From: Escherichia coli
GTDB taxonomy: Bacteria; Pseudomonadota; Gammaproteobacteria; Enterobacterales; Enterobacteriaceae
Reading direction: 5' to 3' (one strand)
Length of the DNA stretch: 64,000 nt
Assembly (NCBI RefSeq): GCF_051903065.1
Contig: NZ_CP178438.1
The position numbers were made by a program, and so were the translations under genes. This document shows, piece by piece, positions 53,935 to 54,084 of this stretch. Numbering within the stretch: the first letter of the stretch is position 1; each line of letters begins with the position of its first letter. The notes beneath the pieces were generated by a model. The model saw only the letters and a list, made by a program, of their open reading frames with translations. It was not told the origin of the DNA and ran no database searches.

Positions 53935-54084
53935 ACCGTGATGTTTACCGTCTCTCTGACGCGTGAAAGAATCAGCGTCAGAGAAACGGAAAACGCGATC
54001 CAGATCACAAATGCATTGTATTCACATCATTAACCGTTTTAAGATCATTTCATCACTTTTTCGCAACTCACCCGATAATCTGTT

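Follow-up and report, generated by a model that had tools for sequence, protein, structure and literature searches.

A perfect 10-bp inverted repeat lies just downstream of yneK in the window (the whole 64-kb stretch of E. coli DNA analyzed here), and the hairpin that it encodes most likely belongs to a known class of U-less 3' stem-loops, capping the end of the yneK mRNA. A fuller reading, in which the hairpin is the 3'-terminal protective stem-loop of the yneK transcript and Rho stops transcription in or before the sotB leader, is put forward tentatively, with a confidence that falls somewhat short of even. The genes at the locus are arranged in the order sad (yneI, - strand), ptrR (yneJ, + strand), yneK (+), sotB (ydeA, +), marC (-) and marRAB (+). 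The yneK coding sequence (52819..53934, + strand, according to the open reading frame list and the RefSeq annotation of matching genomes) is an AT-rich orphan encoding 371 aa, with its TAA stop at 53932-53934. The next gene downstream, sotB (54085..55275, + strand), encodes an L-arabinose/sugar efflux MFS transporter. In a profile search YneK was assigned to the NCBIfam equivalog NF033404 (YneK) with E = 1e-243, and no Pfam family was matched. No homologues of YneK below 68% identity were found among 5.8 billion proteins, all 22 matches being from Escherichia or Shigella.

The repeat consists of a left arm TCTCTGACGC (53953..53962), a loop or spacer GTGAAAGAATCA (53963..53974) and a right arm GCGTCAGAGA (53975..53984), all given on the + strand. 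The first 9 bases of the left arm and the last 9 bases of the right arm form a conserved core, and the loop varies in sequence between lineages at constant length. This combination of arms and N12 occurs once in the window. The sequence-only reading had described the repeat correctly in sequence and in its place 3' of yneK; its coordinates, 53944-53975, were 9 bases too far left and ended on the first base of the right arm, and the gap to the yneK stop, which it had put at 10 bp, is 18 nt (from the TAA at 53932-53934 to 53953). The repeat exceeds chance: a search for perfect inverted repeats (arms of 10 bp or more, loops of 3-20) gave 22 matches at 12 loci, whereas 100 Markov-1 shuffles of the 64-kb window gave 1.2 on average. 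The eleven other loci lie at 1434-1460, 3063-3087, 3128-3155, 10059-10084, 14347-14377, 17567-17598, 24381-24416, 26878-26908, 45673-45706, 57151-57183 and 59826-59856, for an overall excess of about tenfold over the chance expectation. Most of these eleven are without a clear T-run, the sole T-rich + strand tail (TGATTTTTATGA) being that of 59826-59856.

A 601-nt query around the hairpin matched 5417 of 5426 complete E. coli genomes. With a 63-nt query of the hairpin, 4301 genomes were matched, each in a median of 1 place and a maximum of 2, so that a repeated element (REP, MITE) is ruled out. The hairpin resembles REP and BIME elements as an extragenic palindrome between genes on the same strand and as a potential exonuclease barrier, but differs from them in being single-copy per genome and in lacking an Rfam match. 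We know of no similarity between it and the REP consensus. A search of 52500-55500 against all Rfam families (E ≤ 10) returned only noise on the hairpin (MIR1023, E = 7.5). No RYYYAAC or GTTRRRY core sites of an attC-like site were seen by eye. A 41-codon open reading frame with a GTG start (53963-54088) spans the loop; it is not coding, since 1-nt indels in natural alleles (MFDS and the deletion-strain alleles) break its frame.

The predicted full stem-loop extends from 53937 to 53997 (+ strand), with outer parts that are poorly conserved. Its 3' portion, 53984-53997, corresponds by our own estimate to about 1,616,927-1,616,940 of E. coli K-12 (U00096.3). The 32-nt core folds at -18.4 kcal/mol through 10 perfect pairs, 6 of them G-C. 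The predicted fold adds an inner 3-bp helix (53964-66 with 53972-74, UGA/UCA), which leaves a 5-nt loop, a lower stem (53948-51 with 53986-89) and two sets of outer pairs (53943-46 with 53991-94, and 53937-39 with 53995-97). The stem thus begins 18 nt past the yneK stop, or 2 nt past it when the outer predicted pairs are counted. The nominal loop is 12 nt; with the inner helix and one bulge it is predicted to shrink to 5 nt in E. coli and 7 nt in E. albertii. As + strand RNA the whole structure folds at -30.4 kcal/mol (z = -5.9), and none of 200 shuffles was equally stable. For the - strand RNA the value is -33.9 kcal/mol (z = -6.5); both strands fold alike because the DNA is symmetric.

The tails that follow the hairpin are AACGGAAAACGC on the + strand, which holds no T in 12 bases, and GACGGTAAACAT on the - strand. 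A terminator scan gave 0 sites at the hairpin, and no U-tract was found on either strand in any of the variants compared. In intrinsic termination a rU-dA hybrid is required for release of the RNA. The hairpin is like an intrinsic terminator in its perfect, G+C-containing stem just after a stop codon and in a stability within the range of real terminators; unlike one, it has no 7-8 nt U-tract on either strand. Measured against the usual features of the family, the stem-loop is present, the U-run (at least 5 of 8) is absent, and the nominal loop of 12 nt compares with the expected 3-8 nt. Lacking the defining U-tract, the hairpin is excluded from the intrinsic terminators, and the statements of the sequence-only reading that no T-run follows the repeat and that it is not a canonical terminator are borne out on both strands and in all variants.

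The 100 nt that follow the hairpin (53985..54084, + strand) are C-rich and G-poor, with 25 C against 12 G, which places them at the 94th percentile among 100-nt windows here. The same tract is the sotB upstream block, conserved across Enterobacteriaceae, and carries a promoter-like site at 54021-54048; the block starts directly after the hairpin. At 53990-54084 its conservation reaches beyond that of the hairpin and follows the pattern GATCACAAA..ATTGT.TTTTC..AACGTTTTAAGATC..CTTTTCGCAAC, and in E. coli it includes the palindrome AATGCATT. Within sotB itself, a published intragenic sigma-54 site of ydeA (TTGGTGTGGCTTTTGCA; PMC4591121) is found unchanged in the window at 54410-54426.

The hairpin was compared in eleven sequences that represent identity classes in E. 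coli and E. albertii. The 9-bp core, TCTCTGACG on the left and CGTCAGAGA on the right, is invariant wherever yneK is present, including an E. coli allele that is only 84% identical in protein, and E. albertii. Conservation across genomes, which the sequence-only reading had named as a check on the repeat, is therefore found: the hairpin is kept wherever yneK exists. The loop occurs as GTGAAAGAATCA, GGAACAGAATCA, GTGAACGAATCA and GTGACAGAACAA, and in E. albertii as GTGATATAACCA. Core-to-core spacing is always 14 nt, and no indels occur within it, though both flanks carry them. Between E. coli and E. albertii the arms are identical at 18 of 18 positions, whereas the loop is 64% identical (5 of 14 positions differ), the spacer overall about 83%, and the 5' flank has a 9-nt indel; additional E. 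albertii contigs show the same hairpin. By our own estimate, with a background identity of 75-83%, such arm invariance would arise under neutrality with P of about 0.006-0.035, and to judge from these alignments a chance outcome is unlikely.

Lineages in which yneK is deleted keep a diverged hairpin, CTCTCTGAtG-N12-CGTCAGAGAG. Its C to T change is the sole arm substitution seen; it gives a G.U pair on the + strand RNA and an A.C mismatch on the - strand, and the variant folds at -18.6 kcal/mol (+) vs -15.7 kcal/mol (-). This is a single hint, from sequence comparison, toward a function in + strand RNA. All 10 of the natural variants folded keep a strong hairpin in the same place, at -18.6 to -30.4 kcal/mol. 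Covariation was not significant, as 8 of the 15 pairs are invariant and only one double change occurs (lower stem, G-C to A-U); 86 of 500 shuffles reach the same score.

The sequence-only reading had offered two possibilities for the repeat, a protein-binding palindrome or an RNA-processing hairpin. Both are compatible with arms that are conserved, a loop that varies and a spacing fixed at 14 nt; the weight of the remaining observations leans to an RNA hairpin at a 3' end. It is favored by the position just past the stop codon, by the hairpin being the only strong structure downstream of ptrR-yneK, by the C-over-G tract that follows, by the one variant that pairs as G.U solely on the + strand, and by the match to a class described by Dar and Sorek in 2018 (PMC6061677). 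No terminator-like site was found by the scan between ptrR and yneK, so that, going downstream from either gene, the hairpin is the first strong structure to be met. In other genera with ptrR adjacent to sotB, a terminator is often found at this place, the one in Citrobacter (locus L011) being canonical: GCCCGCTTCCGGGCATTCTTTTTTT.

On this reading the yneK (probably ptrR-yneK) transcript would contain, in its 3' untranslated end, a stem-loop encoded by the repeat. The hairpin would not free RNA polymerase as an intrinsic terminator does, because it has no U-tract. Rho would probably halt transcription leaving yneK further downstream, within the C-rich, G-poor 100 nt, and 3'-5' exonucleases (PNPase, RNase II) would trim the tail back until they reach the hairpin. 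The hairpin would thereby set and stabilize the mRNA 3' end and, together with Rho, may shield the sotB promoter from upstream transcription. That the hairpin is transcribed, that Rho acts there and that exonucleases stop at the hairpin are steps which we infer.

The class to which the hairpin is compared consists of U-less 3' stem-loops, followed by a bias of C over G, which shield the RNA against PNPase and RNase II once transcription has ended diffusely further downstream (Dar and Sorek 2018; PMC6061677). The yneK hairpin is like these Rho-dependent 3' stem-loops in being a stable stem-loop past a coding sequence, with no U-rich tail and with a C-over-G bias. It is unlike them in its larger nominal loop (12 nt; 5 if the inner helix forms) and in a C-rich tract that doubles as the sotB promoter region, and it is known here from its sequence. 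Since that tract is also a conserved promoter region, its composition may have other causes. Two further observations speak against a 3'-end role, namely that the - strand folds equally well and that a nominal loop of 12 nt is large for a hairpin of the terminator type. A role in stabilizing yneK mRNA may also matter little, given the very low expression of yneK (base mean 14; PMC9068703) and its frequent occurrence as a pseudogene. In a ptrR mutant, expression of yneK was up by 2.8 log2 (PMC9068703).

Mapped 3' ends, to which the sequence-only reading had also looked, give a less complete answer than conservation. No + strand 3' end at yneK/ydeA is listed in the tables of Adams et al. 2021, in TERMITe or in SMRT-Cappable-seq, and TERMITe lists no terminator at the hairpin. 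The only entry of Adams et al. 2021 at this place is an antisense 3' end inside ydeA (1617935, -). The term-seq tables examined thus hold no end at the hairpin; as yneK is barely expressed, a missing 3' end is weak evidence.

The distribution of yneK was surveyed with 80 sotB loci taken from species-representative genomes. The yneK gene and its hairpin were seen only in E. coli, Shigella and E. albertii, the E. albertii YneK being 68% identical. In other Escherichia, Citrobacter, Salmonella and others, ptrR is the immediate upstream neighbor of sotB, at a distance of 88-222 nt, and the hairpin is absent; the other Escherichia lineages without yneK comprise E. whittamii and three unnamed or cryptic ones. 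When the yneK-less Escherichia loci L008 and L009 were compared with the window by blastn, homology stopped at 52707 / 52718 and restarted at 53983. These searches and the alignments define an island at 52708..53982. Its left edge falls within the last ~10 codons of ptrR and its right edge (53982/53983) within the final 2 nt of the right arm of the hairpin. The GC content of the yneK region is 34-44%, vs about 52% in the flanks. The C-terminus of PtrR also differs, reading ...DTSLEQHETAK* in E. whittamii, having another ending in island carriers and further endings elsewhere. As homology to the yneK-less loci restarts within the right arm, and as yneK occurs in only a few lineages, the hairpin is, on these comparisons, the last element of a lineage-restricted orphan island. 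An 8-mer, GTGATGTT, is present at both junctions; as a target-site duplication around yneK it is not significant (P = 0.13). A MAFFT alignment hinted that the hairpin might derive from the ancestral ptrR 3' end, copied to a new place; this was rejected, as local alignment scored no better than with shuffles (P = 0.53).

Several loci of the survey deserve separate description. Inactivation of yneK has occurred repeatedly in nature (loci L002, L004, L085, L088 and L089), by frameshifts in O104:H4 and UTAK-1, by an internal stop in O157:H7 and by an internal deletion of ~1 kb that about 1100 of 5426 complete genomes share. After this deletion, ~30 codons at the start of yneK and ~20 nt at its end remain, annotated as a remnant. 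Locus L009 (Escherichia sp. MOD1-EC7003, 2835-2900), which lacks yneK, has a unique spacer of ~65 nt between ptrR and the conserved sotB block; this spacer has a small inverted repeat of its own (CTGTG...CACAG) and no similarity to the window. L009 may have arisen from the island by another deletion, since its ptrR ends in ...DVPD*, an E. coli-type junction. In one E. albertii genome (GCA_025825695.1; locus L094, 1700-2124) a deletion runs from approximately codon 9 of sotB (window 54110) into marA, whose 3' part (window 56845) is now fused to that codon; sotB, marC, marR and most of marA are gone, and the yneK hairpin is retained. A contig labelled 'MAG: Caldithrix sp.' (SMXE01000224.1; locus L005) carries ptrR-yneK-sotB, and its sotB matches that of E. 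coli at 100% identity; the contig almost certainly comes from E. coli, through mis-binning or contamination.

The position of the hairpin at the island border also suits another explanation, which we consider rather doubtful: the hairpin may be a functionless relic that arrived by horizontal transfer at the very border of the yneK island, perhaps as a donor terminator stem parted from its U-tract at the recombination breakpoint, its persistence being explained by the youth of the island and the shortness of the stem. The right boundary, which coincides with the end of the right arm to within 2 nt, the restriction of an AT-rich orphan to E. coli, Shigella and E. albertii, the frequent loss of yneK by frameshift, internal stop or deletion, and the normal sotB upstream region retained by species without the island are all in keeping with a relic. 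So is the finding that no 3' end or binding site is reported at the hairpin in those tables that were examined. Against a relic stand the 18 arm positions that are the same in E. coli and E. albertii while loop and flanks have diverged and acquired indels, an outcome of low probability under neutrality as estimated above, and the hairpin outlasts the internal deletion of yneK.

The same conserved arms could instead act as double-stranded DNA, with a dimeric protein on the half-sites TCTCTGACG and CGTCAGAGA regulating sotB or blocking transcription from yneK; an operator of this kind is unlikely, more so than a relic. Like palindromic operators such as that of PtrR (TTCACGAATCGaGAA), the repeat has perfect dyad symmetry, conserved half-sites and a constant spacing, in which the spacer sequence varies at a fixed 14 nt without indels; as symmetric DNA it also folds equally on both strands. 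It lies upstream of the sotB promoter-like site, the center of the palindrome being ~87 bp upstream of the start implied by 54021-54048. Fur has been reported bound upstream of ydeA (PMC4676285), and the literature describes a RyhB-dependent rise in ydeA RNA and lists ydeA as a CRP SELEX target. Unlike those of palindromic operators, however, the half-sites are far apart (23 bp from center to center) and match no motif tested, and among the few regulators checked neither a known motif nor reported binding coincides with the repeat. The best Fur-box match in the spacer is 11/19, lies off the hairpin and is at background level, as 433 window positions score equally; a Fur box on the hairpin was accordingly rejected. 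The neighboring regulator PtrR recognizes TTCACGAATCGaGAA, which is unrelated to the repeat, so that a PtrR operator was rejected too, and among the PtrR ChIP-exo sites named in the main text of the source (the full set numbers nine) none is at yneK/ydeA. The SELEX peaks of NtrC, RpoN, RpoS and RpoH are in or near the yneJ-yneK spacer and the yneK 5' end, more than 1 kb upstream of the hairpin, and in the main-text tables and named sites of the binding studies no site is placed on the hairpin. The repeat occurs once per genome, species lacking the island have the sotB promoter block but not the repeat, and the natural C to T change breaks the symmetry of the DNA while leaving the RNA pairing intact. 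The narrower proposal that the palindrome is the operator of a dimeric regulator acquired with the yneK island by E. coli and E. albertii, for lineage-specific control of sotB, is very improbable; if true, the SotB sugar/drug efflux pump beside the mar locus would be under a control not shared by other enterobacteria.

A weak, non-canonical intrinsic terminator, in which the stable hairpin alone would give partial termination or pausing without a U-tract, is equally hard to credit, because for all its strong stem (the 10 perfect pairs plus extensions) directly after the stop codon, and the possible intermediates between two termination modes noted by Dar and Sorek (PMC6061677), the tail does not hold even a partial U-tract, the consensus scan gave 0 terminators and TERMITe lists none.

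Should the reading as a protective 3' stem-loop be correct, the yneK (ptrR-yneK) transcript would truly end at the hairpin, which would also explain how the promoter of the sotB efflux pump escapes transcription from upstream in island-bearing lineages. To the U-less 3' stem-loops already described it adds one that E. coli and E. albertii both conserve, with little importance beyond annotation. A mildly interesting feature is that a U-less stem-loop can coincide exactly with the border of an island gained by horizontal transfer.
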